A DNA stretch of 64,000 bases. Origin: a virus. The notes under the pieces are model-generated. The model did not search any database and was not told the origin of the DNA. It was given only the letters and a program-made list of their open reading frames with translations. The DNA is taken from IMG/VR virus record IMGVR_UViG_3300033074_002003; one strand, written 5' to 3'. The translations under genes were made by a program, and so were the position numbers. Positions 1 to 31,493 of this stretch are shown here, piece by piece. How positions within the stretch are numbered: position 1 is the stretch's first letter; each line of letters starts with the position of its first letter.

Positions 1-324
1 ATGGCGTGCCCGCGATTGACGATAGGTATGCGACAAACGAACGATTGAAGAGAGCGCCCTCTCGACTGTGTTGAACTATTGCTGCACAGCGAGACCCGGC
101 AAATCCGGTGAGGTAGTGAATTGCGAGAGCGCTGACAACGCCCGAGCGATTGAGTCCCTGGTGACACGTTACGAGCGCAGTCTTTCCCTCTCTTACTGCG
201 GCGGCAACAGCCTGTGCGGCAGAGTGCCAAGACGAAATCCAGTGCTCTGGGATGACACACTCCGCGTCGATCGAAGGTGCTCTGATCACTTGGACGCCCG
301 GGAATCCGAGATCCTGTGGTCCGT

Positions 325-1230
325 CTACTTGGTACTCTTTCGCACAGAGGACAACCACATCGATCCCGGAATCACGCAGGCTGTTTCCTTGCGGTGGGCG
401 AGGACCCTGGTAGATCCTCTGGAAAACCATATCAGCACTGTATTGCACTTGTCACTGGCCTTTTCTGGCTCTCGCGCGGATGGTGTCGAATGACTCCGGC
501 GCGGCGAGGTTGCCAGCATTGTACACCTCGCGCATGATAGAGTAAGGCACTTTCGCGGCACCATCCCGGAGAACAGCGCGCGAATCCTATCCGCGTCGCT
601 GCCCGATGTATTGCTCTCGTGCGCGCAGTAGTTGAAATACGGCCTGCGTCCCGTTGCAGCGTGCCAGAGCTCTCCCTCTCGCGCGATCTGCGCGAGCGTC
701 AGCTTTGCCCTGAACGGCACGAGAGCATTTCGAGCCTCGTCGGTGCTCTCATGGACAGAAAACTGCAACCCGACTGTCGGAACATCGACAGACAGCTTTC
801 TCATCTGCGAATAATCAACGTCGGGTGCACTCGTGCTGACAAGTAGGGCCGCCTTGGGATAGAGCGAGTGCAACTTTCGAACTGCAACATCGAGCTCTTT
901 CATGTTGAGCAGTGGTTCTCCCATGCTCATGAACATGATCTGCAGCTTATCGACCGCACTTGCGTCGATATTGTTCGCAGCGAAGAGGTGCGCGGGCTGC
1001 TCGACGATCTCGTCTGAGGTGAGACTTCGCACGAAGGAGTCGCCAGCACCGCAGAATCGGCATCCGACTGGGCACCCGCTCTGGGTCGAGATGCACATCA
1101 CCGTCCTCTGTTCGTACGTCGGGTACTTGTAGAGGACGGATTCGGCGACAGCATCACCTCGTTCGAAGACGTACTTCAGAACGTTGGCATCGGAGCTGCG
1201 GACGACGCGGGTAGAGTCCCAGTGTTTCAT
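325..1230 (-). CDS. radical SAM enzyme of the RlmN/Cfr RNA methyltransferase family; N-terminally short, and the last ~80 codons are compositionally odd so the C-terminal boundary is uncertain
   Basis: CPVGCRFC (CxxxCxxC) at aa 52-59; MSMGEPLL SAM-binding motif; LLVSTSAP and LQFSVHESTDEARNALVP resemble the RlmN STSG and SLHAPNDELR..LVP motifs. Confidence 0.55.
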   Translation of the reverse strand: MKHWDSTRVVRSSDANVLKYVFERGDAVAESVLYKYPTYEQRTVMCISTQSGCPVGCRFCGAGDSFVRSLTSDEIVEQPAHLFAANNIDASAVDKLQIMFMSMGEPLLNMKELDVAVRKLHSLYPKAALLVSTSAPDVDYSQMRKLSVDVPTVGLQFSVHESTDEARNALVPFRAKLTLAQIAREGELWHAATGRRPYFNYCAHESNTSGSDADRIRALFSGMVPRKCLTLSCARCTMLATSPRRSHSTPSAREPEKASDKCNTVLIWFSRGSTRVLAHRKETACVIPGSMWLSSVRKSTK

Positions 1231-1239
1231 TGCAGCCTC

Positions 1240-2271
1240 CTAGAACTTCTGCGCGAAGTGCGTGATGATGTGGAAGTGGTCCTCAAAGAAAGAGGCCTCG
1301 CTAGCGAACACCTCATTGAGTGGCATCCACCACGCTTTTTCGGCGTCATCGCTACCCCTGACACGCGGCAATTCGCCCGTGCCGAGATCAATTGCAAATG
1401 CGTGTGTGATCGTACGACCCCGGAGAGAGCGACCTGGGTGATCGAACACGTGAGAATCGACGATCGCAGATGACAGTTGCGCGTTTGAGACCTTGATGCC
1501 CGTCTCTTCACGAAGCTCTCGGATCGCACCGGCTCTGATCGTCTCTTTCTGATTGAGGAACCCACCCGGGAGCGCAAAGAGGCCCTTCCCGGGATTGCCC
1601 TTCCTCTTTACGACGAGGACGTGACCGCTCTTGAACACGACGGCATCGACGGTCACAAACATGGGCGGGAACGGAGCGCCTCTCCATGCTTCTTTGTACG
1701 ATTCGATGAAGTGAAACTCTTCCTTGAGAGCCTCAAACTTATCACTCTTGCTGAACTTGAGCAAGAAGTCCGTCACAGCCGCGGGCAAGTAGTTTTGAAA
1801 CTCAGCATCGCCGCGAAAATACAGCTCGCGAATCTCGGTCGCGCCCTTCACACCCTTGATCTCGTCCGTCTCAACGAACTTCCACTGCGGGAAGATGCGA
1901 AGGTAGAAAGAGCTGTCGTCTTTCTCATGGCCGAAAAGAGCTATCGTGGGTGAGGCGTGCTCGGTGGCACCAGTCGTAATTTCGCTCACCTGGCGCTGCA
2001 CCGACGTCACCCACACGTTGTCGTTGTAGAGGTGATCGTTTGCCAACACAAACCTGATGTGCTGCTGCTCTTCGTACGTCAGCGAGTTGAGAATCATCGC
2101 GCCGCGCTCTGCAGCGGTCCAGGGATTCTTGGTCGTCCTGGGTTTGTTGCAGCTACCGATCACAACAATCAGGGTCTCACACCGCTCGAGCGCAAATTTG
2201 ACAGACGCCAGGTGCGCGACGTGAAACGGCTCGAAACGACCGATGTAGACACCAAAATCAAACTTTTCCAT
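1240..2271 (-). CDS. nadM: bifunctional NMN adenylyltransferase / Nudix ADP-ribose pyrophosphatase (NadM-Nudix, NatV-like)
   Basis: N-terminal GRFEPFHVAHL nucleotidyltransferase (H/T)xGH motif; C-terminal Nudix box GGFLNQKETIRAGAIRELREETG. Confidence 0.8.
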   Translation of the reverse strand: MEKFDFGVYIGRFEPFHVAHLASVKFALERCETLIVVIGSCNKPRTTKNPWTAAERGAMILNSLTYEEQQHIRFVLANDHLYNDNVWVTSVQRQVSEITTGATEHASPTIALFGHEKDDSSFYLRIFPQWKFVETDEIKGVKGATEIRELYFRGDAEFQNYLPAAVTDFLLKFSKSDKFEALKEEFHFIESYKEAWRGAPFPPMFVTVDAVVFKSGHVLVVKRKGNPGKGLFALPGGFLNQKETIRAGAIRELREETGIKVSNAQLSSAIVDSHVFDHPGRSLRGRTITHAFAIDLGTGELPRVRGSDDAEKAWWMPLNEVFASEASFFEDHFHIITHFAQKF

Positions 2272-2392
2272 GACACACTCTCCGTGTATTAGGCGTCACT
2301 CGCTCACTGCAAGTATCGACACCAGAGCAGCTTCTCGTGCTCCTGACTATAGGATATGGCGACCCGTGAGTTTGTACACAAAATGCTCTAAC

Positions 2393-3511
2393 TCAGGACG
2401 CCTTTTCAGTATCATCCTTGGTTGAATCGAGCTCAATCTTCACTGCACCCGTCGGAGTGACCTTCTTGAACGCAAGCGCCTCGAAGTACTTCACTGCCTC
2501 CTGATCTTCAAGATTCACGGGTCCACCCATTCTCTTCGAAACGGCGCGACCGAACATTCTCTCCCAATCGCGGTGCTCGGGTGCCCTAACTTCGAGGTTC
2601 TTCTTCCAGGATGCTTCGATGACTGTCGGCGCAATTCCGAGCTGCTTCGCCTGATAGACAAGCGCATTTACGTCCTTCGGGAAACAGTGACCGCCATAGC
2701 CCCGCGAGCCGTCAGGACCCGGCACTGCCCAGTGAGAAGTTCCGAGCCGCTCATCGAGCCGAGCGTATTCAACGACCTTGTCGTAGTCGATATTCGCGCC
2801 CGTGGCATCGAGTGCCTCACAGATCTGTGACATCTCGTTCGCGAAGGCAACCTTCGTGGCGAGGAAGCAATTCGTCACGTACTTTACCATCTCGGCTGTC
2901 GTCGAGCTCGTCTTGATGAGCTTCACGCTCGGGAATGCAGACTGGAAGATCTCCTTCACCTTGTTGATGTGGGGACGCGGCCCGCCGAGGACGATCCTGT
3001 TCTGGTTCCTCATGTCATCGAGAGCGTTTGCCTCTGTGAGGAACTCGGGGCTGAATACGACGCGGAGACCTGTGCCGGCGTACTTCTTGTTCCACGCTTC
3101 TGTCGAGCCAGGTGGAACGGTAGACTTCACGACCGCGATGCGCGAGCCGGGAACTTTTGCAAGTTCATCGAGCGTTGACTCTACGATAGAGAGGTCGGCA
3201 GCACCGTCCTCATACATGGGTGTCGGAAGGCAGACGAAGTAGACGCCCGAGAAAAGGTGCTGTCTCTCACACTCTTCGACAAAGCCGCGCGTATTGGGAA
3301 CCTCTGCTTGTTCCGCGGGCAGAGTGTCGAGGCCGGCATTCTTTTGCATCTGCTCGAACGAGATAGAAGCTGCAATGAGCGCAGTGCCCCCCTCGGCGAC
3401 CTTTCCCATCTTGTCGTAGACAAACACGGTAAACCCGCGCTCATTCATGACAGTAGTGAGAGACCCGCCGACAAAACCTTGACCAATGATCGCTAGCGAT
3501 TGATTTTTCAT
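2393..3511 (-). CDS. ugd: UDP-glucose 6-dehydrogenase (makes UDP-glucuronic acid)
   Basis: N-terminal Rossmann IIGQGFVGG; catalytic-Cys motif GGHCFPKD; overall UDPG/MGDP dehydrogenase layout. Confidence 0.85.
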   Translation of the reverse strand: MKNQSLAIIGQGFVGGSLTTVMNERGFTVFVYDKMGKVAEGGTALIAASISFEQMQKNAGLDTLPAEQAEVPNTRGFVEECERQHLFSGVYFVCLPTPMYEDGAADLSIVESTLDELAKVPGSRIAVVKSTVPPGSTEAWNKKYAGTGLRVVFSPEFLTEANALDDMRNQNRIVLGGPRPHINKVKEIFQSAFPSVKLIKTSSTTAEMVKYVTNCFLATKVAFANEMSQICEALDATGANIDYDKVVEYARLDERLGTSHWAVPGPDGSRGYGGHCFPKDVNALVYQAKQLGIAPTVIEASWKKNLEVRAPEHRDWERMFGRAVSKRMGGPVNLEDQEAVKYFEALAFKKVTPTGAVKIELDSTKDDTEKAS

Positions 3512-4296
3512 TGTTCGTTCCTAATCCAGCTACGATAGCCCAACACTTCTAGCTCACCCTGAGTAACCCAACGATAACTCATTTGCTTAGTTTCAGCAAA
3601 TTTATGAAGCGCAAAACGTTTGAATTCAGCATTTTTATCACGACCCTTTACTTCTTCAATCGATACTCGATCACGAGTTACCAAGAAATCAGGGACAAAC
3701 ATTTTCGGAACGCCATCACAATTTGTGTATGGTATGCGAATACCATGACGTTTTGTCCACATCACAACAGTGACATCACTATCAAGTCTTTGCATGTAAA
3801 ACTTTTCAAGCATTGAATCATAGAAGAAAGATTCACTTGATTTTGATGATGTATACCAACCTTTACGCCCATACCCATTTGTATTGGGTATTGTCCCGTC
3901 AGCAATGCCGCGAGCTCGAGACTCTGACATTCTTTGACACGTTTCTGCTGTGTGGTGTTTTCCAAAGAAAGGATTATTTTCACCCGTAAAACGTTGGCTA
4001 TTTAGCGCAATTTTTCTACGAGCTTCTTCAGTGTGTGTTTTGCCGAAAAAAGAATTTCCTTCGCCTTTACGAGCTAAAGACATCTTAGCACGAGTTTCAA
4101 GTGATGCTTTCTTCCCACGTTTAGATGCGCTCAGCTTTGCTTTACTTTCAATAGAAAAATGCTTTCCGCGAAATGGATTGTTCCTTGTTGTGAAGCAACT
4201 TCGGCACTCTTGCTTTCGTTGTTCAGCACGTAAAAATGCTTGTTCACCCTTGTATGTCAACTCACGATTACATGTTGGACAATTTCGCACAAACAC
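3508..4296 (-). CDS. homing-endonuclease-like protein: N-terminal Zn finger, three NUMOD3 DNA-binding repeats and a C-terminal putative PD-(D/E)XK-like nuclease domain
   Basis: CPTCN..CRSC finger; repeats NPFRGKHFSIESKAKLS / NSFFGKTHTEEARRKIA / NPFFGKHHTAETCQRMS; C-terminal FVPDFLV..IEEVKG; local GC ~42% versus ~55% in flanks; ATGA overlap with ugd. Confidence 0.6.
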   Translation of the reverse strand: MFVRNCPTCNRELTYKGEQAFLRAEQRKQECRSCFTTRNNPFRGKHFSIESKAKLSASKRGKKASLETRAKMSLARKGEGNSFFGKTHTEEARRKIALNSQRFTGENNPFFGKHHTAETCQRMSESRARGIADGTIPNTNGYGRKGWYTSSKSSESFFYDSMLEKFYMQRLDSDVTVVMWTKRHGIRIPYTNCDGVPKMFVPDFLVTRDRVSIEEVKGRDKNAEFKRFALHKFAETKQMSYRWVTQGELEVLGYRSWIRNEQ

Positions 4297-4357
4297 ATTT
4301 AATCCCTTATCTTACAGTTCATGTTGAGCTCACTGTATATCGAGATGCTTCGAGTGT

Positions 4358-5020
4358 TTATTTCCCGCCGAGATGTTCGTGAAGGGCTTCTGACTCGTAC
4401 CTGTCTAGAGCACGCTCATATTTGGGCTCGCGCCCGAGCGAAATTTCTCGCACAGCGACAGACGACGCGAGCGACGGGCGGTGAAGCGTCGACTTTTCGC
4501 CGGCCTCGTTCAACGCAATCGCGACCCTGCTAGAGTAGCACCTGATGCCGCCGAGGATCGCATTCTTTGTGTCGTACCTCCAGAAGGAAGAAAGCCAGAC
4601 GTTCTTCAGAGACTTCTCGGCCTCGAGGTGCCAGTTCTGTTCAGAACAATCGATCACACAACCAGTAATGACGGTGTCATCATCGAGCAACAGGCAGTGT
4701 CGCCAGTCGTCTACGATGACAAAATCACACGATGCTGCGAAGATTTCCGCTAGCGCCTCGCGTGTGGGCTCGGGAACAGAGATGATCCTGCGCGACTTTC
4801 CCAGGATCTGAGAGAGCGCAATGAGTTGTGGAGAAGATCCGATTGCCACAACCAGCGCGGCTTCTGCCGCAGCGGACTTCTTCGCTGCTTTCCTCGCCGT
4901 TTCCTCGGCCCTAAATTTCTTGTTGGCCTCTCGAATCGCTTTCTTCTCGAGGCGCTTCTTCTCGTATTCTGCGATCCGCGCCGCCCGCTCTTCGAGAGAC
5001 AGTTTCACACCTCTGGGCAT
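4358..5020 (-). CDS. hypothetical protein with a basic K/A/E-rich N-terminal region
   Basis: ORF fits the operon phasing; no recognisable catalytic motifs. Confidence 0.4.
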   Translation of the reverse strand: MPRGVKLSLEERAARIAEYEKKRLEKKAIREANKKFRAEETARKAAKKSAAAEAALVVAIGSSPQLIALSQILGKSRRIISVPEPTREALAEIFAASCDFVIVDDWRHCLLLDDDTVITGCVIDCSEQNWHLEAEKSLKNVWLSSFWRYDTKNAILGGIRCYSSRVAIALNEAGEKSTLHRPSLASSVAVREISLGREPKYERALDRYESEALHEHLGGK

Positions 5021-5051
5021 GTTCAGATTTTACGCCGTCAGTGAGGTGTGT

Positions 5052-5822
5052 TCAGCGAAACCTATTTCTCATGATCGAGACAGCCTGTTCGTTGCTATCG
5101 ACCAAGATGCACGTTCGACCCGTATTCAGCGCCGCCTGTCCTGTCGTTCCTGAACCCGCAAAAAAATCTAGGACCGTCCCACCCACCGGGCAAGAGGCTC
5201 TGATCGCTCGCTCAACGAGCTTCACGGGCTTCTGCGTTGGGTAGTGCCCACCGAACTCCCTCTCTTTACTCTGCGTTCCGACAATAGACATCCACCACAC
5301 GTCTGTCGGATTTTTTCCTGCGGCCGCTCGGTCGGCATCTTTCTGCAGTCCGGGCGCCATGTAGGGAATCTTGTCAATGTCATCCCAGTTGAATACGTGC
5401 CCACCGAACGATTTCACGTACACAAGAATGTCATCGTGCTTCCTGGGCCACCGATTTTTCCCGCGCCCGCCGTAATCATAGGCCCAAATCACGTGGTTGA
5501 GGAAGTTGTGTCGACCGAAGATCTCATCGGCGACTGGTTTCACGTCAAACACCGAGTGATAGTCTAGGTGGATGTAGATCGTCCCACTGTCTTTCAATAC
5601 AGCGTGAGCTGCGCTGAGGTAATTTCGAGTGAATTGAACGTAGTCACCCACACTAAATGAGTCACGATAACGAACACCAGCATCCTCCGTAGATTTTTGC
5701 GTGTAACCGCAGTTGAAAGGCGGGTCGACGTAAATCATATCGATCGACTGTTTTGCGCGCGCAGACAGAAATTCCACACAATCACCGTGATGAATCTCTA
5801 GCGGCGAAGCGCCGCCACCCAT
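5052..5822 (-). CDS. beta-class DNA N6-adenine/N4-cytosine methyltransferase with no adjacent restriction enzyme; likely starts at the internal Met (MGGGASPLEIHHGDCVEF) of the longer ORF 5052..6053
   Basis: Motif IV IYVDPPF precedes C-terminal motif I FAGSGTTG (beta-class order); the upstream 77 codons are Arg-rich and overlap the ATP-grasp gene in another frame. Confidence 0.75.
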   Translation of the reverse strand: MGGGASPLEIHHGDCVEFLSARAKQSIDMIYVDPPFNCGYTQKSTEDAGVRYRDSFSVGDYVQFTRNYLSAAHAVLKDSGTIYIHLDYHSVFDVKPVADEIFGRHNFLNHVIWAYDYGGRGKNRWPRKHDDILVYVKSFGGHVFNWDDIDKIPYMAPGLQKDADRAAAGKNPTDVWWMSIVGTQSKEREFGGHYPTQKPVKLVERAIRASCPVGGTVLDFFAGSGTTGQAALNTGRTCILVDSNEQAVSIMRNRFR

Positions 5823-5845
5823 CTCATCTGGCGCTGGGCCTCTTC

Positions 5846-6646
5846 TCACGTGAGCACTTCTTTCCGCAGTGCGACGTACAGATCGAGAGCTTCGTTCATC
5901 GACAGCCCGGACTGTTGGCCGTCGTTCACTTCGACGACGATCCACCCGCCATCTTGCTTCTGTGCCACATCGACAGCAAAGAACGTGACGTGCTGCGCGA
6001 TGATCTCTGCAACAGATGCCAGAAATTCGGGTGGCGGTCGGGACGTGATCCACTCGGGAGGCACGTCTTCACCGTGCGTCGACCAGTAGTATCCCGTCGT
6101 CAGTTCTGTTGTCTTGTAGAAGAACGAGCGATACTCGCGTGTGATCGGGAGCCCGTGATCTGACCTGCAGTGTGTGAGCAGTGGGACGTACTCTCTGATG
6201 TAGATGTCCTGTTCACCCACAAGAGAATCGGCCGTGAGTCGTGAGTGGACTCGCACGGCGTCCTCGAAAGTCTCTGCGTACATGTGAGTGTCCCACAGAA
6301 ATTTCATCGAGTTCGTCGCGCCCTTCAGGACGAAAGGTCCCTTCGCGTCTCTTATATCCTGAAGCCTAAACCACGTCTTTGGCGTGAGGTCGCCGAGAGC
6401 CGTAGACCACTCGCGCATATCTGCACAGAACTGGTGTTCTCTGTATGTGTTTATGAGTGCACCACCGAGAAGTTCTATATCGTTCTCGAATTCCTTGAAG
6501 AAGGGCAGTGCAGAGTAGCGAGGCACGACAAAATCGCCAGGCTGTACGGCTGCGCGCTGGCGAATGACAGTGAATCCCGCCTGCTGCGCGGCCTCCCGTT
6601 CGTGGTCTTCTTCGCGACCCCCTCGCAGTAGCACTACAGTTCTCAC
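5846..6646 (-). CDS. ATP-grasp fold ligase-like protein
   Basis: C-terminal GGWIVVEVNDGQQSG resembles the ATP-grasp C-terminal strand (cf. RimK ..VMEVNASPG); ATGA overlap with glf. Confidence 0.45.
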   Translation of the reverse strand: MRTVVLLRGGREEDHEREAAQQAGFTVIRQRAAVQPGDFVVPRYSALPFFKEFENDIELLGGALINTYREHQFCADMREWSTALGDLTPKTWFRLQDIRDAKGPFVLKGATNSMKFLWDTHMYAETFEDAVRVHSRLTADSLVGEQDIYIREYVPLLTHCRSDHGLPITREYRSFFYKTTELTTGYYWSTHGEDVPPEWITSRPPPEFLASVAEIIAQHVTFFAVDVAQKQDGGWIVVEVNDGQQSGLSMNEALDLYVALRKEVLT

Positions 6647-7749
6647 AGGTGCCGTTTTGCGAGTGTCAGAGCAGAGGCGACGCAGGGACCCATGTCTGTG
6701 TAGGTGTACCTTCCCAGTCGCCCTCCGACTACATACTTCGGGTCTGAATCGGCGAGCCTCTTGTATTTCTGGTAGACCTCGCCGTTCTTATCGTCATTGA
6801 TCGGATAGTACGGGATCGCGTCGCGCGTCCACACTTCTGGGAACTCGCGCGTCACAACCGACGTGGGCAGGTTGTCCTTGAATTCGAAGTGCTTGTGTTC
6901 TACCTGACGCGTCCAGGGAACGTCGCGCTCTGTGTAGTTCACAGTTGCGGTTCCTTGCACATCGCCCAGGTTGACAGTGTGTTCGAACCTCAGTGTCCTG
7001 TACTCGAGCTCTCCATGAACGTACCCATAGAGCTTGTCGATGGGCCCAGTGTAGAGGATCTTGTCACACATCGCCTCGAGAGTGTGCTGCTCCTTGAAGA
7101 AGTCGACACCCAACTGAACTTCGATTCCTTCGAGCATGTTCTCGAAAATCTGTGTGTAGCCGCCGATGGGAATTCCCTGGTGCTTGTCGTTGAAATAGTT
7201 GTCGTCCCACGTGAGGCGAATTGGGAGGCGTCGCAGGATACTTGCCGGGAGCTTGTCTGGCGTGCGCATCCACTGCTTCGTTGTGTAGCCGTAGACGAAT
7301 GTCTCGTAGATCTGACGACCGACCTGTGTGAGCGCCCACTCTTCCATATTTCGCGGCTGTGGGTATCGCTCTCGGTAGCTACGCGTCACTTCTGCCAAGT
7401 GCATCTTCGCCTCTGCGGGCGTTGACACTCCCCAGAGTTGGTACAGCGTCATCATGTTGATCGGGAAAGAGAACATCTTTCCCTCATAGTTCACCTTCGG
7501 CCGGCAGACGAAGTGATTGAACTTCGTGAAGCGATTTACGTACCCCCACGTTTCGTCGTCGTTGCAGTGGAAGACGTGGGGACCGTGCATATGAACATGT
7601 GTACCTTCTATTTCCTTTGTGTAGCAATTACCACCGACATGTGATTGTTTGTCGATCACCAAACAACGCTTGCCCGCTTCCTTAGCCCTCTGAGCGAATG
7701 TTGAACCTGTAAGACCAGCACCAACAATCAGAAAATCATATTTTGACAT
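6643..7749 (-). CDS. glf: UDP-galactopyranose mutase (makes UDP-galactofuranose); probable start at MSKYDFLIVGAG
   Basis: Near-collinear similarity to Glf: FAD-binding DFLIVGAGLTGS, HVGGNCYT, HMHGPHVFHCND, YQGIPIGGYTQIFENML. Confidence 0.85.
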   Translation of the reverse strand: MSKYDFLIVGAGLTGSTFAQRAKEAGKRCLVIDKQSHVGGNCYTKEIEGTHVHMHGPHVFHCNDDETWGYVNRFTKFNHFVCRPKVNYEGKMFSFPINMMTLYQLWGVSTPAEAKMHLAEVTRSYRERYPQPRNMEEWALTQVGRQIYETFVYGYTTKQWMRTPDKLPASILRRLPIRLTWDDNYFNDKHQGIPIGGYTQIFENMLEGIEVQLGVDFFKEQHTLEAMCDKILYTGPIDKLYGYVHGELEYRTLRFEHTVNLGDVQGTATVNYTERDVPWTRQVEHKHFEFKDNLPTSVVTREFPEVWTRDAIPYYPINDDKNGEVYQKYKRLADSDPKYVVGGRLGRYTYTDMGPCVASALTLAKRHL

Positions 7750-8530
7750 CGAGTTTATTCCTGAGATACTGTACAAGATTATTTTGTGCTAGCTCACGCT
7801 GTGCTTCTAAATCTGTAATTCGGACGAGACGAATGTTTTGATTTTCGAACCACAATACTTGCTCTTGATCTCGAGCTCGCGTGTCTAAAATTACGCGATC
7901 GATGGGTTTATCACTCAACTGTATCGCTTCAACAGAACGATCCAGACCGTGCCAGAACACGCCGTCGACTTGAACATAGATCGTAGGCTCTTTGACTTTG
8001 AGATCAATTTCCCAACCGTTGATTCTGCTCGGCCATTCAACGAGATCTTCGCCGAAGATCGATGCTAGCGCATCACGCACGCTTCTCTCGATTTTGGAGT
8101 GTCGATAAGTTCCATTTTTGACGCGTGTCTGTCTTCCTTTTGCATAGTTCGCGGGCGAAAATGCATTTACTCTCCATTCATCAAATTTTGCTTTGCCTTC
8201 GCTTTCACCGTACTTGGAAATGAGCTTTTCAAGTCTTTCTTGATTTGTCAACCCAGCAGTACCGACCTTATTAGCAGTTTGCCATTTTGATCTACAAGAG
8301 AATCCACAAAATGCAATAGCACCCGCCGAAAGTCGCGCACCATTGATTCGTTGTGTGGTTTCTTGCTTACACTGTTTACACACAAACGTATAATCAACGG
8401 CAACCCATCCGTTCTTCTCTTGACGCTGCCGAACCCAGTAACTAGACAAACACGATTGCGAACAAAAGCGAAGTTTTCTGCCAATACCAGACGCGTCTTC
8501 AAAATCACACAAACAACGTGGACAGTTCAA
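7736..8530 (-). CDS. Zn-finger protein with a C-terminal Vsr/DUF559-like PD-(D/E)XK endonuclease domain (homing-endonuclease-like)
   Basis: CPRC..C..SC and CKQCK..C..SC fingers; C-terminal IYVQVDGVFWHG..DR..L...G..LVRI typical of DUF559/Vsr endonucleases; low local GC (~40%). Confidence 0.55.
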   Translation of the reverse strand: MNCPRCLCDFEDASGIGRKLRFCSQSCLSSYWVRQRQEKNGWVAVDYTFVCKQCKQETTQRINGARLSAGAIAFCGFSCRSKWQTANKVGTAGLTNQERLEKLISKYGESEGKAKFDEWRVNAFSPANYAKGRQTRVKNGTYRHSKIERSVRDALASIFGEDLVEWPSRINGWEIDLKVKEPTIYVQVDGVFWHGLDRSVEAIQLSDKPIDRVILDTRARDQEQVLWFENQNIRLVRITDLEAQRELAQNNLVQYLRNKLDVKI

Positions 8531-8549
8531 AGTGTATTCCCATATGTCA

Positions 8550-8915
8550 TCAGCAGTACCTCACGTTCCCGCTACGACAGCGGCCCACTTCTCTTCCCAT
8601 GACATTGAGTCGCTTCTCAATTGCATCTAGACGGATCACCAACATCGGATCGATCGCCTGCGGAGACGGTGGAATGTTCTCTGCGGGGAGCGCAGGTGCG
8701 GGATCGGCGGCGTCCTCTTGCCGTGCATCACCTTCAGCTGGTGTCAGATTGACATCTTCGGCTGAGAGGGTTGTTACCTTCTCGAAGGTCAGTTGGAGGT
8801 GTTCTTTGATCACGCGGGCTTGCGCTGCGCTGATTGAACCAGAACCGCTCGGCTGCAGTTCAAAGTAACCCTGTAGCCAGTAGCAGAATTGTTCTGGTGT
8901 CATTTGCTCTCCCAC
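8550..8915 (-). CDS. hypothetical protein (conserved small phage protein, MTPEQFCYWLQGYFEL N-terminus)
   Basis: ORF in operon phase; no catalytic motif. Confidence 0.4.
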   Translation of the reverse strand: MGEQMTPEQFCYWLQGYFELQPSGSGSISAAQARVIKEHLQLTFEKVTTLSAEDVNLTPAEGDARQEDAADPAPALPAENIPPSPQAIDPMLVIRLDAIEKRLNVMGREVGRCRSGNVRYC

Positions 8916-9286
8916 ACGTAGTTTGTTGTTGTGACCGTGTCGTCAAATCTGTCCGCTAGAGTGTGGAAGTAAATTTTGGGACGCACGTTCGACCTAAGAT
9001 ACTTTTGCACCATCATGTCCTGCAAGAAAAACGACCACACGCGCAGTTCATCGTTGATCCCTGCATTTGGCAGGCGATAAGCGTCCATGTGCATCATTAC
9101 GGGATTGCCGTGCCCAGTCCAGAATTTGGGCGTTGAAACGATTTCGCAATCGATCTCGTCGGGAATGAGAATTTTCTCGATAATGAGCAACTCAGACTCG
9201 GAGGGCTCAGCCCTTCCACTTTTAGTCTTGCTCTCGTGAAGAGTTTTCAGCAAGAGCTCTTTTTCGTCGCTGTTAAAGTGTCTCAT
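8900..9286 (-). CDS. hypothetical protein
   Basis: ORF in operon phase, overlaps its neighbours by a few codons. Confidence 0.35.
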   Translation of the reverse strand: MRHFNSDEKELLLKTLHESKTKSGRAEPSESELLIIEKILIPDEIDCEIVSTPKFWTGHGNPVMMHMDAYRLPNAGINDELRVWSFFLQDMMVQKYLRSNVRPKIYFHTLADRFDDTVTTTNYVWESK

Positions 9287-10187
9287 GCAATGCTCGAATG
9301 ACGTCAGACCACCCGCCCTGTGATTTTATCTCCTCAACACCCTGTTGTATCGCCTTGTCGTTTCTAGTGGGATCTCTGCCGAGAACGCTTCTGATATTTG
9401 TGACGAGCGAATCGAGGTCCTCAAATGGCCTGATCGTTTCGATCGTTTCACAGCCATAAGTGAACACCTGATCGTCAAATGATCGCATCGAGAAGCAGCC
9501 TCGAGCCGCGGCTTCGATGTCTTTGATCCACGGTGGGCTCGCGTTGATCTTTTCGCCGTCAACAGTGCACTCAAAGTTCTCGCTGTGCACAAACACTTTC
9601 ATCTGCGAAAGCGTCGCGAGATAGCTCTGGTAGTCTACCTGTGGAGCGATAGTGACGTCAATGCCGCGAGATTTGAGACCCTCAAACAATTCTCTGCGAT
9701 ACGGGTGAAGTGTACCACAGAATCCGACGTCAATTTTTCTATCGGAAAACTTGGGACCTACGCTGCAGTACTGCGGCAACATCCACATCCTGACAAACTT
9801 CGACGGGATTCCGCGCGAGACGACGAAGTTCGACCACCACGAAGACGTTGTCAGGAATGTTGCGAGGTTCAACCTGCGCTTGATGACATCGTACGTTCCC
9901 TTGAATGGCGACTCGTCGCGGAACGACTCCCACACGTCCTGCTCGTAGAAAAGTGTCCGCGCGCCGCCAAGAAATGATTCGATAGCATCGATCTCACGGT
10001 GAATGGTACGCAACTTCAGAAGTGACAGCGTTCGATCTGAACCCTTCTCGAGTCGCGATCCAGATCGCACGTCAGCGAGTTCATAGTACCTGACGCTGCA
10101 CTGCTGGTCTAGTGTTGCGAGGAGCTGGTGAATGTAGCAATTTGATCTCGCGTACTGGAGTGAGTCTACGATGACGTCTACTTTCAT
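9273..10187 (-). CDS. putative glycosyltransferase (GT-B C-terminal-domain-like, CgeB-like)
   Basis: Weak similarity to group-1 GT C-terminal half; embedded in the glycan operon. Confidence 0.3.
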   Translation of the reverse strand: MKVDVIVDSLQYARSNCYIHQLLATLDQQCSVRYYELADVRSGSRLEKGSDRTLSLLKLRTIHREIDAIESFLGGARTLFYEQDVWESFRDESPFKGTYDVIKRRLNLATFLTTSSWWSNFVVSRGIPSKFVRMWMLPQYCSVGPKFSDRKIDVGFCGTLHPYRRELFEGLKSRGIDVTIAPQVDYQSYLATLSQMKVFVHSENFECTVDGEKINASPPWIKDIEAAARGCFSMRSFDDQVFTYGCETIETIRPFEDLDSLVTNIRSVLGRDPTRNDKAIQQGVEEIKSQGGWSDVIRALHETL

Positions 10188-10906
10188 TGTGCGCTCCCGA
10201 ATTTCGCTACTGCCTCCGCGAGCGCTTCTTTGAACCTTGTAGATGTGTAAGAGTTGGCGGCCGCGAACTTTATTGGATTTGCTGCGACGACGCGAGCACC
10301 CTCTAGAGCAAGCTCTCTGGCGCGGTGCGGAGCAACAGCATTGTGCTGCAGCACCTGTGACAATACGTGAACCTGGCCTTTCAGTGCACGGTGGAGACCG
10401 AAGTGAAAGGCCTGTTCATCGTTGGGATACAGACAGTGAAATCCCGCGGGTTCCATGACCGCGTGGCGCCCGAGACTTTCACCCTTGAGAACGATGTCGT
10501 GATTCCCGTCGACGTGGTCACAGAATAGTTCTTGGCTACGCGCAAAGGTCACTCGAGGCGTGAAGAAATTTAGGCCCGCAATGAGACCGCCCGTGTAGAA
10601 GTCTTGGAGTCTGAGCTGCAAACCGGTGACTCGCTTGTTTTGCGCGAAAATCTCAAACCACGCACGGGCGATTACGGTTTCGTGCGCAAGAACTGTATCG
10701 GCGTCGACCTTCACAAAGAGATCGTGTGTCGCCTTGTGAGCGTCCCAAGCGTCCCAGAGCGCGTTGTGTGCTTCTTTTTCTGGTAGACCTGCCACGACAT
10801 GGTGTGTAATCGAGACCTGCTCCTGTGCGGCAATGAGACGTTTGCACTCTTCGAACTCGGCTTCGCCCGAGTGTAGTGTTCCGACAAACACTCTTGGTTG
10901 TGTCAT
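10184..10906 (-). CDS. hypothetical protein, possible GT-A fold glycosyltransferase
   Basis: KVDADTVL DxD-like motif; ATGA coupling on both sides. Confidence 0.3.
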   Translation of the reverse strand: MTQPRVFVGTLHSGEAEFEECKRLIAAQEQVSITHHVVAGLPEKEAHNALWDAWDAHKATHDLFVKVDADTVLAHETVIARAWFEIFAQNKRVTGLQLRLQDFYTGGLIAGLNFFTPRVTFARSQELFCDHVDGNHDIVLKGESLGRHAVMEPAGFHCLYPNDEQAFHFGLHRALKGQVHVLSQVLQHNAVAPHRARELALEGARVVAANPIKFAAANSYTSTRFKEALAEAVAKFGSAQ

Positions 10907-11481
10907 GGGTGGTTCCTTGTCGCGTACTGTGTTCTCAACATGAACATGCAGATCTGATCCTCAAACTTGCCGTCCCTGTACAGAGACTCCACCAAGACAC
11001 CTTCTTGCAGGAATCCAAGGCGTGTATAGACTTTTCGACCAATTTCGTTGTACACGGCCGTCGTCAGCGACACGCGATGCATCCCTAGGTCGTTGAAACA
11101 GTGTGAGAGCATGAGCTCCCACATCAGGTACGAATATCCTTTGCCGCGATAGTCCCGATGAATATCTGCACCTAGGACGCACGAGAAGTTATTCCTATCT
11201 ACCGTGAACTTGCAGAACCCAACATTTCTCCCGTTGATCGTGAAAATCTTTCGAATCTCGCGCTCTACGTTGAGAGAACGCCACCACTGCATGTGACGCT
11301 CCTCGGTGATGCGCGTCGGATCAGTGAGGTTGCGTAGCACGACTGGATCATTGTGCAGCTCGATTAGCCACGAGTGATCGCGATCATCTACGTCTACAAG
11401 TTCGGTGCGCAGCGTCGTAGAGCCGGGATGATCATCGTCTATTGTAATGGTGTATGACTCGCGACGCGATGAATCTGACAT
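10903..11481 (-). CDS. GNAT family N-acetyltransferase (RimL/PseH-like, probable amino-sugar N-acetylase)
   Basis: GNAT core VGFCKFTV..RGKGYSYLMWELMLSHCFNDLGMHRVSL..N..G..VYTRLGF; sits next to the DegT aminotransferase. Confidence 0.7.
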   Translation of the reverse strand: MSDSSRRESYTITIDDDHPGSTTLRTELVDVDDRDHSWLIELHNDPVVLRNLTDPTRITEERHMQWWRSLNVEREIRKIFTINGRNVGFCKFTVDRNNFSCVLGADIHRDYRGKGYSYLMWELMLSHCFNDLGMHRVSLTTAVYNEIGRKVYTRLGFLQEGVLVESLYRDGKFEDQICMFMLRTQYATRNHP

Positions 11482-12586
11482 CCGATTCCTCCAACCACCA
11501 ACCGCACGGTATCGAGAAGTGCCTGCGAGCGAACTTCCTCACTCCTGGGAGGTGAACTTTGTTTCTCAGGAAACACGTATAGTCGTCGTTCGGAACGTGA
11601 ACGAGTCCCGCTGCGATTCCGTCGTCGTTCAGTGACTTCACGATGTCATCGCGCGTCGCGCCGTCTTCAGAATCTGGTGCCAAGAGTGTGTACACCCAGT
11701 TGCTAGACTGTGACCTTACTGGCCGATAGATCGGCTGGACTCGCGATGTCTTGAAGATTTCGTCGTAGAGCGCGGCATTTAACCTGTGTGTCTGAATGAT
11801 CTTCTCGACGTGTCTCATCTGCGAGAGGCCGATGGCCGCCGAGATGTTGTTCATGTTGAACTTGTACCCCGCCTCCCGAATGTCGACGTCCCACTGCTGT
11901 CCCTTCCAGTCGCCCTTCGCGTCCTTGCCTACATCGCGATCGAGGCCGAACCACTTGAGGCACTTGGCTCGTGCGAGGTCTTTCTTAGACGCACAGACGA
12001 GTGCCCCACCGTCTCCCGTCGTGATGTGCTTGATCGCCTGAAATGAGTAACAGACGAAGTCTGCACTCTTTGAGAGGCACTCGCCGTCATATTTCGCTCC
12101 GAACGCGTGGGCCGCGTCTACGATAAGCTTCACGCCCTTCTGCTTGCAGACATCATAGATGACGTCCATCTCGCCGGGATTCCCGGCCCACGCGACAAAC
12201 ATCACCGCTTTCGTCTTCTCGGTGATCGCCTGCCTGATTGCCTCTGCGTAGACAGTACCAGTTGTCGGATCGATGTCAGCCCAGACGATCTTTGCACCGA
12301 GGTTCTTGATCGGTGTATTCGTGGCGACACACGTCATGGGGGTCGTGACGACGTGATCTCCGTGGCCGACACCCGCTAGCTTCAGCGCGACAGTGAGTGC
12401 CGAAGTGCAACTGTTCATCAGGACGAGATTGTGACCGTCTCCGAGGTGCTGTGAAAGCTCAGCCTGTAGCTGTGTGACGGTCTCACCCTCGTTGAGATAT
12501 CCAGACTCGAGAACGCTGTGAATGTGCTCCATCGCCGATGGTACATCGACGTGGACTTTGAAGAGTGGGTATTTCTTTGCTGTCAT
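11432..12586 (-). CDS. DegT/DnrJ/EryC1/StrS-family PLP-dependent nucleotide-sugar aminotransferase
   Basis: Full-length fold match; PLP-lysine motif SFQAIKHITTGDGGAL; DAAHAFGA. Confidence 0.85.
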   Translation of the reverse strand: MTAKKYPLFKVHVDVPSAMEHIHSVLESGYLNEGETVTQLQAELSQHLGDGHNLVLMNSCTSALTVALKLAGVGHGDHVVTTPMTCVATNTPIKNLGAKIVWADIDPTTGTVYAEAIRQAITEKTKAVMFVAWAGNPGEMDVIYDVCKQKGVKLIVDAAHAFGAKYDGECLSKSADFVCYSFQAIKHITTGDGGALVCASKKDLARAKCLKWFGLDRDVGKDAKGDWKGQQWDVDIREAGYKFNMNNISAAIGLSQMRHVEKIIQTHRLNAALYDEIFKTSRVQPIYRPVRSQSSNWVYTLLAPDSEDGATRDDIVKSLNDDGIAAGLVHVPNDDYTCFLRNKVHLPGVRKFARRHFSIPCGWWLEESDVRFIASRVIHHYNRR

Positions 12587-12595
12587 GTTTGTGTC

Positions 12596-13537
12596 TCAGT
12601 AGATTTCTTCGATGCCCATTTGAAAGTGCACCGCTTCCGGGAATTGCAGAGGCTCGTCGGCGCCCGTTCGCACAGCGAGAAGCTCCACAGAACTTCCTCG
12701 TTCGGCACCGGGTTTATACCCAGCTTCGAGTATGTTGTGCTTGTACAGTTCGTTATGAGCACACCAGATCGTGATCTCAGACCACTTGTGTCTGTAGGCG
12801 GTTTCTTCCACGGCGTCAAATAGATCTGTTAGCGACCAAGGATCACCTTCGACTTCAAGAACATGACACGCGTCTCCGTACGGTTTTAGGACGATGTAAC
12901 TACCATCCTCAGCCGAAAACTTGATGTAGTGATGGTACGGATGATGTTCCCAACGTGCGAGTCGATAGATGTCATCACACACAAACCCGTCGTAATCTGC
13001 TACAACACCGAGTCCCAAAGTGTTCTTGACACTGTCTGGTATTTTTCGATATCGATCCTGTCTCGGTTTGAGACTGTACATCTCTATTTCTTGAACACGT
13101 TCCCACCCAGACTTTAGGTGAGCATCAATCACAGGTTTGCCCGCCTGTGGGAAACCCAAGATGTAGTCAGTTAGATGGAGGTTGCGTTCACAAGCAATCG
13201 CGTACTTGCTCAGTTCAACGAATATGTTGCGCCTGCGATAGTTCGGATCGATGCCCACAGCGAAGCACCTTCCCACACTTGTCTGTTCACCCGCGCGGAG
13301 TAGTGCTTTTTGCTCGACACACCAGATACCCACAAGGTGCGTGCCGTCATACGCACCATATACACGAACATCGCGATCGAATGAACCTACAGTTGCGCGA
13401 CGCGGTCGCATATACCAATCGATCCACTCACGCGTAATGTCAGTGTTGGGAAAAAGCGTGGTGTGAAGAGCGAGAAACCGCAGCACTTCGTTGTAAGAGC
13501 TGAGCGCGACGCTGGAGAAATATATGTTTTCACTCAC
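12596..13537 (-). CDS. hypothetical protein, possible acyltransferase (GNAT/FemAB-like fold)
   Basis: Operon position between SDR and aminotransferase; weak fold-level resemblance only. Confidence 0.3.
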   Translation of the reverse strand: MSENIYFSSVALSSYNEVLRFLALHTTLFPNTDITREWIDWYMRPRRATVGSFDRDVRVYGAYDGTHLVGIWCVEQKALLRAGEQTSVGRCFAVGIDPNYRRRNIFVELSKYAIACERNLHLTDYILGFPQAGKPVIDAHLKSGWERVQEIEMYSLKPRQDRYRKIPDSVKNTLGLGVVADYDGFVCDDIYRLARWEHHPYHHYIKFSAEDGSYIVLKPYGDACHVLEVEGDPWSLTDLFDAVEETAYRHKWSEITIWCAHNELYKHNILEAGYKPGAERGSSVELLAVRTGADEPLQFPEAVHFQMGIEEIY

Positions 13538-14286
13538 AACCTGAGCCCTCCGTCAACGTGAAGTGTCTGTCCCGTAGTGTATCCGTTGTCACTATCGAGC
13601 AAGAACTTTACAGCGCTGTAGAAGTGTTGGATTGACCCAAACTTTTTCGCCGGAATCTTCTCTTTGATCTGCTCCTGGATTGCGGGCGGGATCGTGTTGA
13701 TGATACCCTGATCGAAGTAGCCAAGAGCGAGTGCGTTGACAGTGACGCCCTTCCCGATGAGCTCGAGCGCCGCTGACCTCGTGAATCCCTCGATTCCGGC
13801 CTTCGCTGCTGCGTAGTGTGATGCTCCCACGGCACCATTCGCGGCAACAACGCTCGATATGTTGATGATCCGCCCGTATTCCGCGTCACGCATTCCCGGG
13901 ATGAATTCGCGACAGACGAGAAACGTCGAGACGAGATTATCGTAGATTGCGCCCGTGAAGCTCTTGAGGTCAAGCTTCCAGCACATGCCATTCGAAGACG
14001 CGCCCGCCAGGTTGATCAGGTGCTGAACGCGCTGCCCGGTTGTGGACTCAATCGCTGCCCTGAGGTTGCGAACATCGCTCTCATTTGTCAGCTCTGCTTT
14101 GAAGCACCGCGAATCAAAGTTTCGAATCGGGTCTGATGTGATGTGTGCGTGCCTATCCCAGACGTCTTTCAATGCCGTGTAGTGATCTCTATACTGACAG
14201 ACAACGTCAAAGCCGTCGTCGAGCATCTTCTCTACGAGGGCACAACCCAGTCCGCCTCCAGCACCCGTAACTAGGACGATTGTCAC
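13534..14286 (-). CDS. classical short-chain dehydrogenase/reductase (FabG-like)
   Basis: TGAGGGLG cofactor motif; catalytic YAAAK; NISS. Confidence 0.8.
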   Translation of the reverse strand: MTIVLVTGAGGGLGCALVEKMLDDGFDVVCQYRDHYTALKDVWDRHAHITSDPIRNFDSRCFKAELTNESDVRNLRAAIESTTGQRVQHLINLAGASSNGMCWKLDLKSFTGAIYDNLVSTFLVCREFIPGMRDAEYGRIINISSVVAANGAVGASHYAAAKAGIEGFTRSAALELIGKGVTVNALALGYFDQGIINTIPPAIQEQIKEKIPAKKFGSIQHFYSAVKFLLDSDNGYTTGQTLHVDGGLRL

Positions 14287-15098
14287 TGCGCGCTCCGCAA
14301 CTGGGACGTGATGTAGACTTCACAAGCGTCGTAGAAAGTCTTTGAGAGCGGGTGCACCCTAAACTGCTTGCTCATTGAACCACGCTGGTGTGCTACGAAC
14401 GGTGTGCCGTCCGATAGCGTGTACTCTGTGTGATAGTCCTCACCCGTGAGTACGGCCTTCGCCTTGCCCGAGTTGGGCCTGACAAATTCTAGGGAGTAGT
14501 ACTTGATGGAGTTCTCATAGAGATACAACGGGAATTTCCAGCACGGTTCTCTGAAGAGAGAGAAGCCGATGGGAAGGTTGAATGCCTCGGACTGTTCTTT
14601 GGTTGTGATGGGCAGGAGGTTGCCCTTGTCTGCTGAAACGTCAAAGTCCCACGCGTGCCTCGTCGTAAGAGCACACCACGTGAAATTTGGCACGCGCTTG
14701 TAAGTCTGCGATACGCCCGTTCCAGAAGAGAACCCACCGATGTCCTCGTAGATCGTTCCGATGACATCTACGCCGCCAGCGACAATCTCTTCGAGCTTCG
14801 TGTCCCAGCCGCGAGCGAGCACGAGCGAGTCGCTGTCTGCAATGATGTTTACCTCACCCGCTTCCATGTTTGCAAGCGCGGCCTTGATACCCAGCATGTG
14901 TGCAATCGATCCCGAATTTCCGAGGGGAAGTAGCACAGCCTTCCCACCCGACGACAACACACGCTGGTAGCTGTCCTGATCGAGGCAGTATGCCACAAAA
15001 TCGAGCCGCTCTGGTTTCGCAGCGAGGCTGCGATGATTTGCTACGCAGTATTCGTAGTACTGGTACGTCACTGCTGACGTGACAATGTGAACTCTCAT
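14283..15098 (-). CDS. hypothetical protein, possible GT-A-fold glycosyltransferase
   Basis: IIADSDSLV DxD-like motif; ATGA coupled. Confidence 0.3.
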   Translation of the reverse strand: MRVHIVTSAVTYQYYEYCVANHRSLAAKPERLDFVAYCLDQDSYQRVLSSGGKAVLLPLGNSGSIAHMLGIKAALANMEAGEVNIIADSDSLVLARGWDTKLEEIVAGGVDVIGTIYEDIGGFSSGTGVSQTYKRVPNFTWCALTTRHAWDFDVSADKGNLLPITTKEQSEAFNLPIGFSLFREPCWKFPLYLYENSIKYYSLEFVRPNSGKAKAVLTGEDYHTEYTLSDGTPFVAHQRGSMSKQFRVHPLSKTFYDACEVYITSQLRSAQ

Positions 15099-16114
15099 TT
15101 TGAATCCTTCACGATTTCGTCGATCGCTCTGCCCGTGAATGACGACAGAGGCGCGTCCAAGATTCCGAGCTTTGTGAGGTGCTCGTGGAGCTCGTCCTTC
15201 GACATCACATCGTCGGCGCTCGTGTAATCGATCCGCAGCTCTCCGTCTGAAGCTTGCTTGTACGACGGCACGAGTGCGTAATGCTTCCCGTCGAAAATGA
15301 CGCGTTCCGAGGTGTTCAGAAGCGCTTCGTGCATCTTTTCTCCGGGTCGCAGGCCCACAACCTTGATTGGCTTACCAGACTTCTCAGAGAAGATTTCGGC
15401 CAAGTCTCCGATTCTCATCGCCTTCAGCTTCGGGATGTAGATCCTGTTGCTCACGCCGTGGTGGAGAGCGTGGAATATCAGGTTGACGGAGTCGTCGAGC
15501 GTCATGACGAACCTCGTCATGTCAGGATCTGTGACGGTGATGTGCTCTGCGTTCTCCGACTGGTACTTGAACAGTGGGATGATGCTACCGCGCGACTCGA
15601 GCACATTGCCGTACCTGACGCCGAGAAATCTCGTAGGTGACTGTGAACTCGTAATGAGTCTTTCTGAGATTGCCTTGCACATTCCGTAGACGTTGACTGG
15701 AGCGCAGGCTTTGTCGGTGCTGACAAAGAGAACGGATTCGATCGGCGGGTGTGATGATGCTCCTGCTGTCGCATTGTACTCGTGGACTGCGTCAACAACG
15801 TTCTGCGTTCCCGCGAGGTTCGTCAGGACACTCTCCGTGGGAGAGAGCTCACACGTATCCACCTGCTTCAGTGCAGCAGCAATGATAATCGTCTTCGGGC
15901 GGATCTGTCGTATTGTGGCAAGGACACGCTTCGAGTCCCGAATGTCGCCCACAACGAACTTGCGCGTCTGTTCGAGCGACACGCCGAGCTGAGAGCGCAG
16001 CGTCCAGTGCTTCGCCTCGTCGCGCGAGAAAGCATAAACGAGCTTCTGTGCAGGAAATCGCCTGAGAAGTGCATTGCCCAGCGATCCCGTTCCCCCAAAG
16101 ATGAGAACTGTCAT
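15095..16114 (-). CDS. UDP-GlcNAc 4,6-dehydratase/epimerase of the PseB/CapD/FlaA1 family (Polysacc_synt_2)
   Basis: IFGGTGSLGNAL Rossmann; YGMCKA (YxxxK); VRYGNVLESRGSIIPLF matches the PseB VRYGNV..SRGSVIP signature. Confidence 0.8.
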   Translation of the reverse strand: MTVLIFGGTGSLGNALLRRFPAQKLVYAFSRDEAKHWTLRSQLGVSLEQTRKFVVGDIRDSKRVLATIRQIRPKTIIIAAALKQVDTCELSPTESVLTNLAGTQNVVDAVHEYNATAGASSHPPIESVLFVSTDKACAPVNVYGMCKAISERLITSSQSPTRFLGVRYGNVLESRGSIIPLFKYQSENAEHITVTDPDMTRFVMTLDDSVNLIFHALHHGVSNRIYIPKLKAMRIGDLAEIFSEKSGKPIKVVGLRPGEKMHEALLNTSERVIFDGKHYALVPSYKQASDGELRIDYTSADDVMSKDELHEHLTKLGILDAPLSSFTGRAIDEIVKDSK

Positions 16115-16149
16115 TTCAGGAGTGATTCTAATGACAGTCCGCGCAGTGT

Positions 16150-31478: not shown

Positions 31479-31493
31479 GAAAGAGTGTTCTTG

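Follow-up and report, generated by a model that had tools for sequence, protein, structure and literature searches.

The ORF and its neighbours

The stretch of DNA analysed here (the window) comprises 64,000 nucleotides (nt) of the virus record IMGVR_UViG_3300033074_002003 and carries, close to its first position, an open reading frame (ORF) of 301 amino acids (aa) at 325..1230 on the minus strand, with an ATG start. A preliminary description made from the sequence alone had presented this ORF as a phage-encoded radical S-adenosylmethionine (SAM) methyltransferase of the RlmN/Cfr family that lacks the N-terminal extension and has a C-terminus possibly spoiled by a frameshift. The window is phage DNA, as had been stated, for it encodes a large terminase (52136-53806), a portal (54330-56381) and a major head protein (61723-63630), as well as PhoH, SbcCD and a primase.

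The upstream neighbour of the ORF is a gene for NadM-Nudix, a bifunctional nicotinamide mononucleotide adenylyltransferase (NMNAT)/Nudix protein (1240..2271, minus strand; Pfam CTP_transf_like and NUDIX; PHROG 395 and PHROG 3462, nicotinamide-nucleotide adenylyltransferase). Downstream lies an intact gene for a cysteine-phosphatase-like protein of 143 aa (2..430, minus strand) whose stop codon falls beyond the window edge and whose P-loop reads CHQGLNRSG. Its Pfam match to DSPc is weak (24.9 bits) and does not reach the cutoff of 33.5, and the phosphatases recently reported from phage operons that reconstitute nicotinamide adenine dinucleotide (NAD) are, unlike this protein, Macro-domain proteins. 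No tRNA gene and no second copy of a radical SAM gene or of a gene for nicotinamide phosphoribosyltransferase (NAMPT) was found within the 64 kb.

Judged by profiles and alignments, the first 220 residues of the ORF (codons 1-220; 571..1230, minus strand) belong to the RlmN/Cfr radical SAM methylase superfamily and represent the retained 5' part of a radical SAM gene, with homology to the 311-aa metagenomic protein P0001, to protein XMQ95057 of Stenotrophomonas phage ANB28 and to the RlmN model TIGR00048. In a search of NCBIfam profiles the RlmN and Cfr models were the only significant matches, TIGR00048 being the top one (89.7 bits, E 1.7e-25; residues 9-203 on model positions 73-265). This score is nevertheless below the curated cutoff of 290, just as the scores against the Cfr models TIGR04432 and NF000424 (72.7-76.1 bits) are below their cutoffs of 530-550; the Pfam Radical_SAM match was borderline (29.6 bits vs a cutoff of 29.5). 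Other radical SAM subfamilies such as QueE and NrdG, one of which the preliminary description had allowed might prove the better match, reached only 10-15 bits (E >= 0.008), with NrdG2 at 12 bits. PHROGs gave only weak partial matches to the gene (phrog_24834, 1e-9) and PADLOC gave none.

The ORF matches P0001 at E = 1.6e-141, with ∼98% identity over its first 220 residues, and the ANB28 protein at E = 1e-90; its first 221 residues are ∼62% identical to the 319-aa proteins of Stenotrophomonas phages ANB28 and BUCTxx99. In the tblastn alignment with ANB28 (57% identity over 245 residues) the final ∼25 columns enter a non-homologous tail. Further full-length relatives occur in Xanthomonas, Aeromonas, Vibrio and Salmonella phages. 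Among the INPHARED phages the relatives are visible at the protein level only; megablast of window positions 1-6000 against them returned no nucleotide match.

The cysteine motif C46-x6-C53-x3-C57-x2-C60 (CISTQSGCPVGCRFC; 1051..1095, minus strand) was identified by alignment with E. coli RlmN and Cfr(B). Within it the CxxxCxxC cluster (C53/C57/C60; 1051-1074) aligns with the RlmN [4Fe-4S] ligands C125/C129/C132, and C46, in CISTQSGC, aligns with RlmN C118. The cluster thus stands ∼50 residues from the start, as the preliminary description said, although the distance to its place in RlmN is ∼72 residues and not the ∼60 that it implied. The missing N-terminal extension was also correctly recognized: the alignment begins at RlmN residue ∼79 (TIGR00048 position 73), and the phage proteins start only 8-10 residues earlier. 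The motifs said to be specific to RlmN are present as approximations, the ORF having LLVSTSAP (STSA, not STSG) where RlmN has LSTSG, and LQFSVHESTDEARNALVPF where RlmN has ISLHAPNDEIRDEIVPI.

RlmN of E. coli is a dual-specificity C2-methyltransferase of 23S rRNA A2503 and tRNA A37 (TIGR00048; PDB 3RFA and 5HR7), and Cfr and Cfr(B) are C8-methyltransferases of 23S rRNA A2503 that confer multidrug resistance (TIGR04432 and NF000424; PDB 9P0P). RlmN supplies the best profile and most of the top fold matches of P0001 (E 1e-15 to 1e-13; template modelling scores 0.61-0.69), and its motif C118-x6-C125-x3-C129-x2-C132 is kept, with C355 in CGQL kept also by the intact relatives. However, the family of the ORF is only 25-30% identical to RlmN, lacks its first ∼78 residues (the N-terminal accessory domain) and has SVVCERxE in place of NLIPWNP, and the window copy in addition lacks everything past residue 220. 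Cfr and Cfr(B) likewise share the superfamily, the fold (Foldseek E 6e-12) and the cysteine pattern, whereas identity is 25-28% and the N-terminal lobe is missing from the family. RlmN and Cfr(B) are 34% identical to each other, closer than either is to the family. The best match of P0001 in the PDB, both by sequence (E 1.9e-18; 7-282 on 85-356) and by fold (E 2.2e-15, 26% identity), is a radical SAM methyltransferase of Sphaerobacter thermophilus annotated as probable RlmN (6FZ6), a bacterial enzyme of housekeeping type which, with 366 aa (341 resolved), does have the N-terminal region, as the alignment starts at its residue 85.

A 1,597-bp deletion and its consequences

Two contigs, L003 and L004, provide intact comparators. 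Both encode P0001, are 96.4-96.6% identical to the window across the flanks, and have the gene order NadM-Nudix, radical SAM (311 aa), NAMPT, phosphatase; the phosphatase-like gene is directly 3' of NAMPT in intact relatives, and its product in the window is 100% identical to that of L004. Window positions 4435 down to 571 correspond to L004 1..3865 and positions 578 down to 1 to L004 5463..6040, so that the two matches overlap by 8 bp and 1,597 bp of L004 are absent from the window. The overlap (571..578, read on the minus strand) is a single copy of the direct repeat CGCTGTTC, which L004 has at both ends of the missing segment, the two copies lying 1,597 bp apart. Over this junction the window reads ...GATTCGCGCGCTGTTC on one side and TCCGGGATGG... 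on the other. In L004 the missing segment holds radical SAM codons 221-311, a 50-nt spacer and 424 of the 465 codons of NAMPT (Pfam NAMPT_N and NAPRTase). What is left of NAMPT in the window is its last 41 codons and stop (452..577, minus strand, in another frame than the ORF), the translation of which, AVLRDGAAKVPYSIMREVYNAGNLAAPESFDTIRARARKGQ followed by the stop, matches the C-terminus of L004 NAMPT.

As 1,597 cannot be divided by 3, the reading frame is lost at the junction, and translation of the ORF continues for another 81 codons in the wrong frame. Residues 221-301 (325..570 with the stop, minus strand) come from reading the NAMPT remnant, a 21-nt spacer and, over 106 nt, the start of the phosphatase gene in frames other than their own, and they have no match in any homologue. 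Similarity to every full-length relative ends at F220, where the relatives go on after ...DADRIxALF with the conserved WEATISVVCERxESVAAAN...FDPAGQDDxGGGCGQLW.... The preliminary description was therefore right that a tail of ∼80 residues looks unlike protein, and the region that it singled out for a second look (nt ∼560-700) holds the breakpoint that sequence comparison places at 571-578. It was mistaken about the cause: the missing C-terminal third is encoded in no frame of the window, whether by translation of the three minus-strand frames or by tblastn with full-length ANB28, so that a frameshift is ruled out in favour of the deletion.

The same 301-aa product and the same junction were found, by exact-protein look-up in Logan, in a separate assembly (SRR32380195, contig L088), which over 11,230 bp differs from the window by 19 mismatches and 5 gaps (99.78% identity). 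An exact search for the junction in IMG/VR gave no match, and this Logan assembly is the only other place where the deletion allele was found. As the scar is common to two non-identical genomes, it is a heritable allele and not an accident of assembly. It is also the derived one, as most relatives keep the C-terminal motif: a GGGCGQL-type motif is present in 135 of the 146 ORFs of the radical SAM cluster (161 loci), the other 11 being mostly cut by contig ends, variant in the motif, or fragments. L003 differs from L004 at the same spot, with an extra ∼1 kb (L003 4641-5615, vs the 50-nt spacer at L004 4141-4192) that carries a 323-aa ORF on the opposite (minus) strand with a weak DUF7487 match. 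The insert in L003 and the 1.6-kb deletion in the window indicate that the radical SAM/NAMPT junction is prone to insertions and deletions.

The loss bears directly on catalysis. In the RlmN/Cfr mechanism a first SAM methylates C355, and the radical is formed when a second is cleaved at the cluster; C118 resolves the enzyme-RNA crosslink, and its mutation traps the covalent intermediate (PMC5130265). C279 of P0001, in GGGCGQL, is the counterpart of RlmN C355 in the alignment and does not vary among 55 intact relatives, which thus have the complete set of cluster and both mechanistic cysteines. The window ORF retains C46, C53, C57 and C60, whereas neither it nor any of the three minus-strand frames has an equivalent of C279. 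AlphaFold, with the family alignment as input, modelled residues 1-222 of the ORF with a per-residue confidence (pLDDT) of ∼90 and the tail with 24-44 (below 50 at 225-269 and 272-301), and two strands and two helices at the end of the fold predicted for P0001 are missing from the ORF. With the C355 equivalent and the last barrel strands gone, we are confident that the product is incapable of methyl transfer of the RlmN/Cfr type and is a pseudogene-like remnant; the truncated protein probably does not fold stably. The proposal that this viral copy could modify the ribosome or tRNA during infection thus founders on the missing cysteine, and a Cfr-like role in resistance finds no support.

We conclude that the ORF is, very probably, what a deletion has left of a phage gene that once encoded a compact, RlmN/Cfr-like radical SAM methylase, and that it is in effect a pseudogene. 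A working phage methyltransferase acting on 23S rRNA A2503 or tRNA A37 in infection, with an odd or misread C-terminus, would account for RlmN and Cfr being the top profile matches and for the intact radical SAM cluster and C118-equivalent cysteine; it is nonetheless highly improbable, as the C355 equivalent and ∼90 conserved residues are missing in all frames, the scores are far under the RlmN and Cfr cutoffs, and the tail combines a lack of homologues with very low model confidence. We give equally little credence to a sequencing or assembly artefact, by which a frameshift or local mis-join would have produced the tail of a gene that is really intact. The tail does start abruptly, the preliminary description suspected a frameshift, and mis-joins at repeats are possible in metagenome assemblies. 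However, the change is no single-base shift, 1,597 bp including most of NAMPT being gone; an 8-bp repeat would be too short to collapse an assembly graph; and the separate, 99.78%-identical assembly has exactly the same junction and protein.

The truncated protein might instead be kept for a new or partial function, as a SAM-binding or SAM-cleaving module or as a dominant-negative partner of a host RlmN-type enzyme. In keeping with this, 301 codons are open, the start and the upstream gene arrangement are preserved, and the allele persists in two lineages. We regard such a function as unlikely, if slightly less so than an active methyltransferase or an artefact: the two lineages differ by only 0.2%, so that selection can hardly be read from their persistence, core strands and helices of the fold went with the lost segment, and the tail is a wrong-frame translation of other genes. 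Some points do weigh against the view of the ORF as a dead remnant. The junction rests on two assemblies, and the samples behind these could be related; beyond the junction the frame is open for a further 81 codons, for which the chance estimate is a few percent; the kept cluster could serve a residual non-catalytic role, such as SAM binding or reductive SAM cleavage; and, with 64 kb of the genome visible, a second intact copy could lie outside the window.

Two systems of NAD reconstitution are known from phages: NARP1, which consists of Adps and Namat, and NARP2, which consists of NAMPT and NMNAT, as in Vibrio phage KVP40. The NadM-Nudix gene at 1240..2271 is the surviving half of such a NARP2-like pair. 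The module in the window is incomplete, with NMNAT-Nudix intact and the NAMPT half deleted down to its last 41 codons, which sets it apart from NARP2. The ancestor resembled L003 and L004, with NadM-Nudix, radical SAM, NAMPT and phosphatase in that order, and the loss between short direct repeats points to microhomology-mediated recombination or to slippage during replication. It was probably the loss of NAMPT that was selected, with truncation of the radical SAM gene as collateral damage. According to a preprint by the discoverers of the pathway, NARP2, found in ∼1% of phages, makes excess NAD+ whether or not it is needed and is "metabolically wasteful and somewhat toxic" (bioRxiv 10.64898/2026.01.28.702374). 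Because of this cost, loss of NAMPT could be neutral or even favoured in hosts without NAD-depleting defences.

For annotation, the ORF is best entered as a truncated remnant beside a NAMPT remnant, and labels such as viral rRNA methylase or possible resistance gene should be avoided; no sequencing error is needed to explain it. The window records a natural deletion that disables, in one lineage of phages, a NARP2-type NAD counter-defence pair which is still intact in close relatives. The feature is ordinary as far as it is a truncated gene; its parent family is a variant of a known enzyme class with a genomic association of which we found no earlier report.

The intact family and its association with NAD genes

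The intact ∼310-aa proteins form a conserved phage-borne RlmN/Cfr-like clade that lacks the N-terminal domain and keeps both catalytic cysteines. Over 55 sequences the mean column identity is 70%, and the two mechanistic cysteines, MSMGEP, STS.P and SVHES are invariant. Five intact members matched the RlmN and Cfr models only, with RlmN best, at 93.9-129.5 bits against TIGR00048 (cutoff 290) and 73.8-92.9 bits against the Cfr models (cutoffs 530-550). Assignment by profile to RlmN or to Cfr, which the preliminary description had proposed as a check, thus puts RlmN first for the ORF (89.7 bits) and leaves the intact relatives short of both curated cutoffs; by this measure they belong to the RlmN/Cfr superfamily, yet are neither RlmN nor Cfr. 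Fold comparison agrees with placement in this superfamily, which was also the only strong match by profile. The AlphaFold model of P0001 (pLDDT 81.8; predicted template modelling score, pTM, 0.82) had RlmN or Cfr as all ten of its best PDB matches (6FZ6, 5HR7, 3RFA, 4PL1 and 9P0P; E 2e-15 to 6e-12), with other radical SAM enzymes appearing from E 3e-5.

A profile search of 1.84 billion representatives retrieved 112 proteins at E <= 1e-30. Scores fell continuously to proteins of canonical RlmN length at ∼120 bits, and 270-315-aa proteins without the N-terminal domain lay between the family and canonical RlmN. The median isoelectric point of the family is 5.9 (∼5 in isolated phages), vs 6.6 for E. 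coli RlmN and 8.8 for Cfr(B). There are 231 confirmed loci in IMG/VR, many on contigs of 100-430 kb, and 74 of the 185,579 species representatives of GTDB carry the family. In cultured bacteria the loci have prophage-like neighbours (DNA methylases, YqaJ/RecT-type recombination genes and DUF5131), read from sequence and with a Pfam match for DUF5131 only; NAD genes accompany them only in Ornithinimicrobium. Viral sequences within the Cfr/RlmN family had already been noted in 2009 (PMC2836569), and we found no paper characterising viral RlmN-like members.

Two aberrant copies were seen. In a metagenome-assembled genome (MAG) of gut Bacilli (L164 6058-6875) the gene is in fragments beside NadD/NadE and looks like another decayed copy, and in a Clostridia MAG (L153 1720-3357) it carries a fused C-terminal extension of 253 aa that matches nothing in Pfam, and a second radical SAM ORF precedes the gene.

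ORFs within 3 kb of the gene were clustered over the 161 loci, and Pfam confirmed each representative of an NAD cluster. The commonest conserved neighbours were all proteins of NAD metabolism, and not of translation: NAMPT/Namat/NAPRT-type phosphoribosyltransferases (26 of 161 loci), Nudix proteins (19), NAD synthetase NadE (11), Isochorismatase/PncA-like proteins (9), NadD-NAD kinase (7) and Adps/Prs-like proteins (6). At least one NAD-type neighbour was present at 34 of the loci, several of which had three to five in varied orders and orientations, while in about four-fifths no NAD gene lay close by; phage contigs that were binned into MAGs may account for some of the genome loci. Members adjacent to NAD genes are spread over 12 of 35 sequence clusters (70% identity). 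Within 1.5 kb lay 58 of 98 NAD-type genes, where ∼30 would be expected under uniform placement in the fetched loci, a test biased towards a positive result because the query set was drawn from near neighbours. Intact relatives place the radical SAM gene with NARP2-like or NARP1-like genes, NAMPT/Namat-type proteins being the commonest neighbour: it stands between NMNAT and NAMPT (NARP2-like) in the relatives of the window, and behind an Adps-like and a Namat-like gene (NARP1-like) in Vibrio phage 496E54-1. The papers on NARP that we could read mention no radical SAM enzyme, we found no paper reporting an association of the family with NAD salvage, and a literature search for radical SAM enzymes in connection with NAD salvage or anti-defence returned nothing relevant. 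We treat the link to NAD genes, which is drawn from gene neighbourhoods, as a lead and not a demonstration.

RNA-related genes recur as neighbours too. tRNA genes were found within 10 kb at 27 of 87 phage or viral loci and within 6 kb at 9 of 74 genome loci, and in the Stenotrophomonas phages the family gene sits inside a tRNA array. The nearest tRNAs are mixed (Thr, Leu, Ser, Met, Gln, Arg and His) and not specifically of the m2A37 class. An RtcB-like neighbour, identified from sequence only, occurs in 7 loci. Downstream of the phosphatase gene, just past window position 1 (L003 7945-9308; L004 6617-8007), the comparators have a PTH2-like peptidyl-tRNA hydrolase and a tRNA_bind protein, together with an HD_4 protein (in L004) and a tRNA-like gene that ARAGORN called with an abnormal 2-nt anticodon, a small accessory block related to translation or RNA. 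In Stenotrophomonas phage BUCTxx99 (L002 8074-8399), ∼1.1 kb downstream of the radical SAM gene and in the tRNA region, ARAGORN called a permuted tmRNA-like gene with the tag peptide ANDDVYVVALAA.

The chemistry of the intact family is probably RlmN-like, with two cysteines and two SAM molecules, in that a methyl group would be placed on C279, a radical generated at the cluster and added to an sp2 carbon of adenine, and the adduct resolved by C46. By analogy with RlmN and Cfr, the candidate substrate that we favour, at somewhat less than even odds, is RNA (tRNA or rRNA); an NAD-related adenine nucleotide or other small molecule is a good deal less probable, and phage DNA less probable again. 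The prophage-like neighbours, which include DNA methylases, lend no specific support to a role in DNA modification. There is nothing in support of a Cfr-like role in resistance.

A more speculative possibility, which we think doubtful, is that the intact family is not an rRNA or tRNA methylase at all but serves, as an accessory enzyme, the modules by which phages, prophages and certain uncultured bacteria salvage or reconstitute NAD. An RlmN-type two-cysteine radical SAM methylase would then act on an adenine nucleotide or NAD-derived molecule, or would otherwise support the NAD pool against NAD-depleting defences, and the window would record a natural joint knockout of the radical SAM enzyme and NAMPT. 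The recurrence of NAMPT/Namat, Nudix, PncA, NadE and NadD neighbours in diverse orders gives the family its interest: if the linkage is functional, a radical SAM step would be added to phage NAD biology, and if it is not, the family would still be a candidate viral RNA modification enzyme.

Other features of the window

Beyond NadM-Nudix, and likewise on the minus strand, are a UDP-glucose dehydrogenase (2393-3511) and a homing-endonuclease-like ORF with NUMOD3 motifs (3508-4296), the end of which overlaps the start of the dehydrogenase by 4 nt. The latter ORF has a sub-threshold TnsA-like match at its N-terminus (E 2.5e-4; 22 bits vs a cutoff of 26.5). An N6/N4 DNA methyltransferase (∼5052-5822, minus strand) adjoins an R2K-clade ATP-grasp protein (5846-6646).

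The UDP-glucose dehydrogenase and the minus-strand genes at 6643-20716 make up a cluster for sugar-nucleotide and glycan biosynthesis. It includes a UDP-galactopyranose mutase (6643-7776), a GNAT acetyltransferase (10903-11481), a DegT/PseC-type aminotransferase (11432-12586), a short-chain dehydrogenase (13534-14286), a PseB/Polysacc_synt_2 dehydratase (15095-16114) and two GT1 glycosyltransferases (18771-20716). Its predicted content suggests that the phage makes a modified sugar, possibly for glycosylation of the virion or of DNA. Several large ORFs between 33.8 and 46.3 kb (794, 1228, 617, 420 and 781 aa) have no PHROG match. On the plus strand, a match to a fragment of a GroEL-like chaperonin (26630-27883) is followed by the PhoH-like protein (31464-32888).

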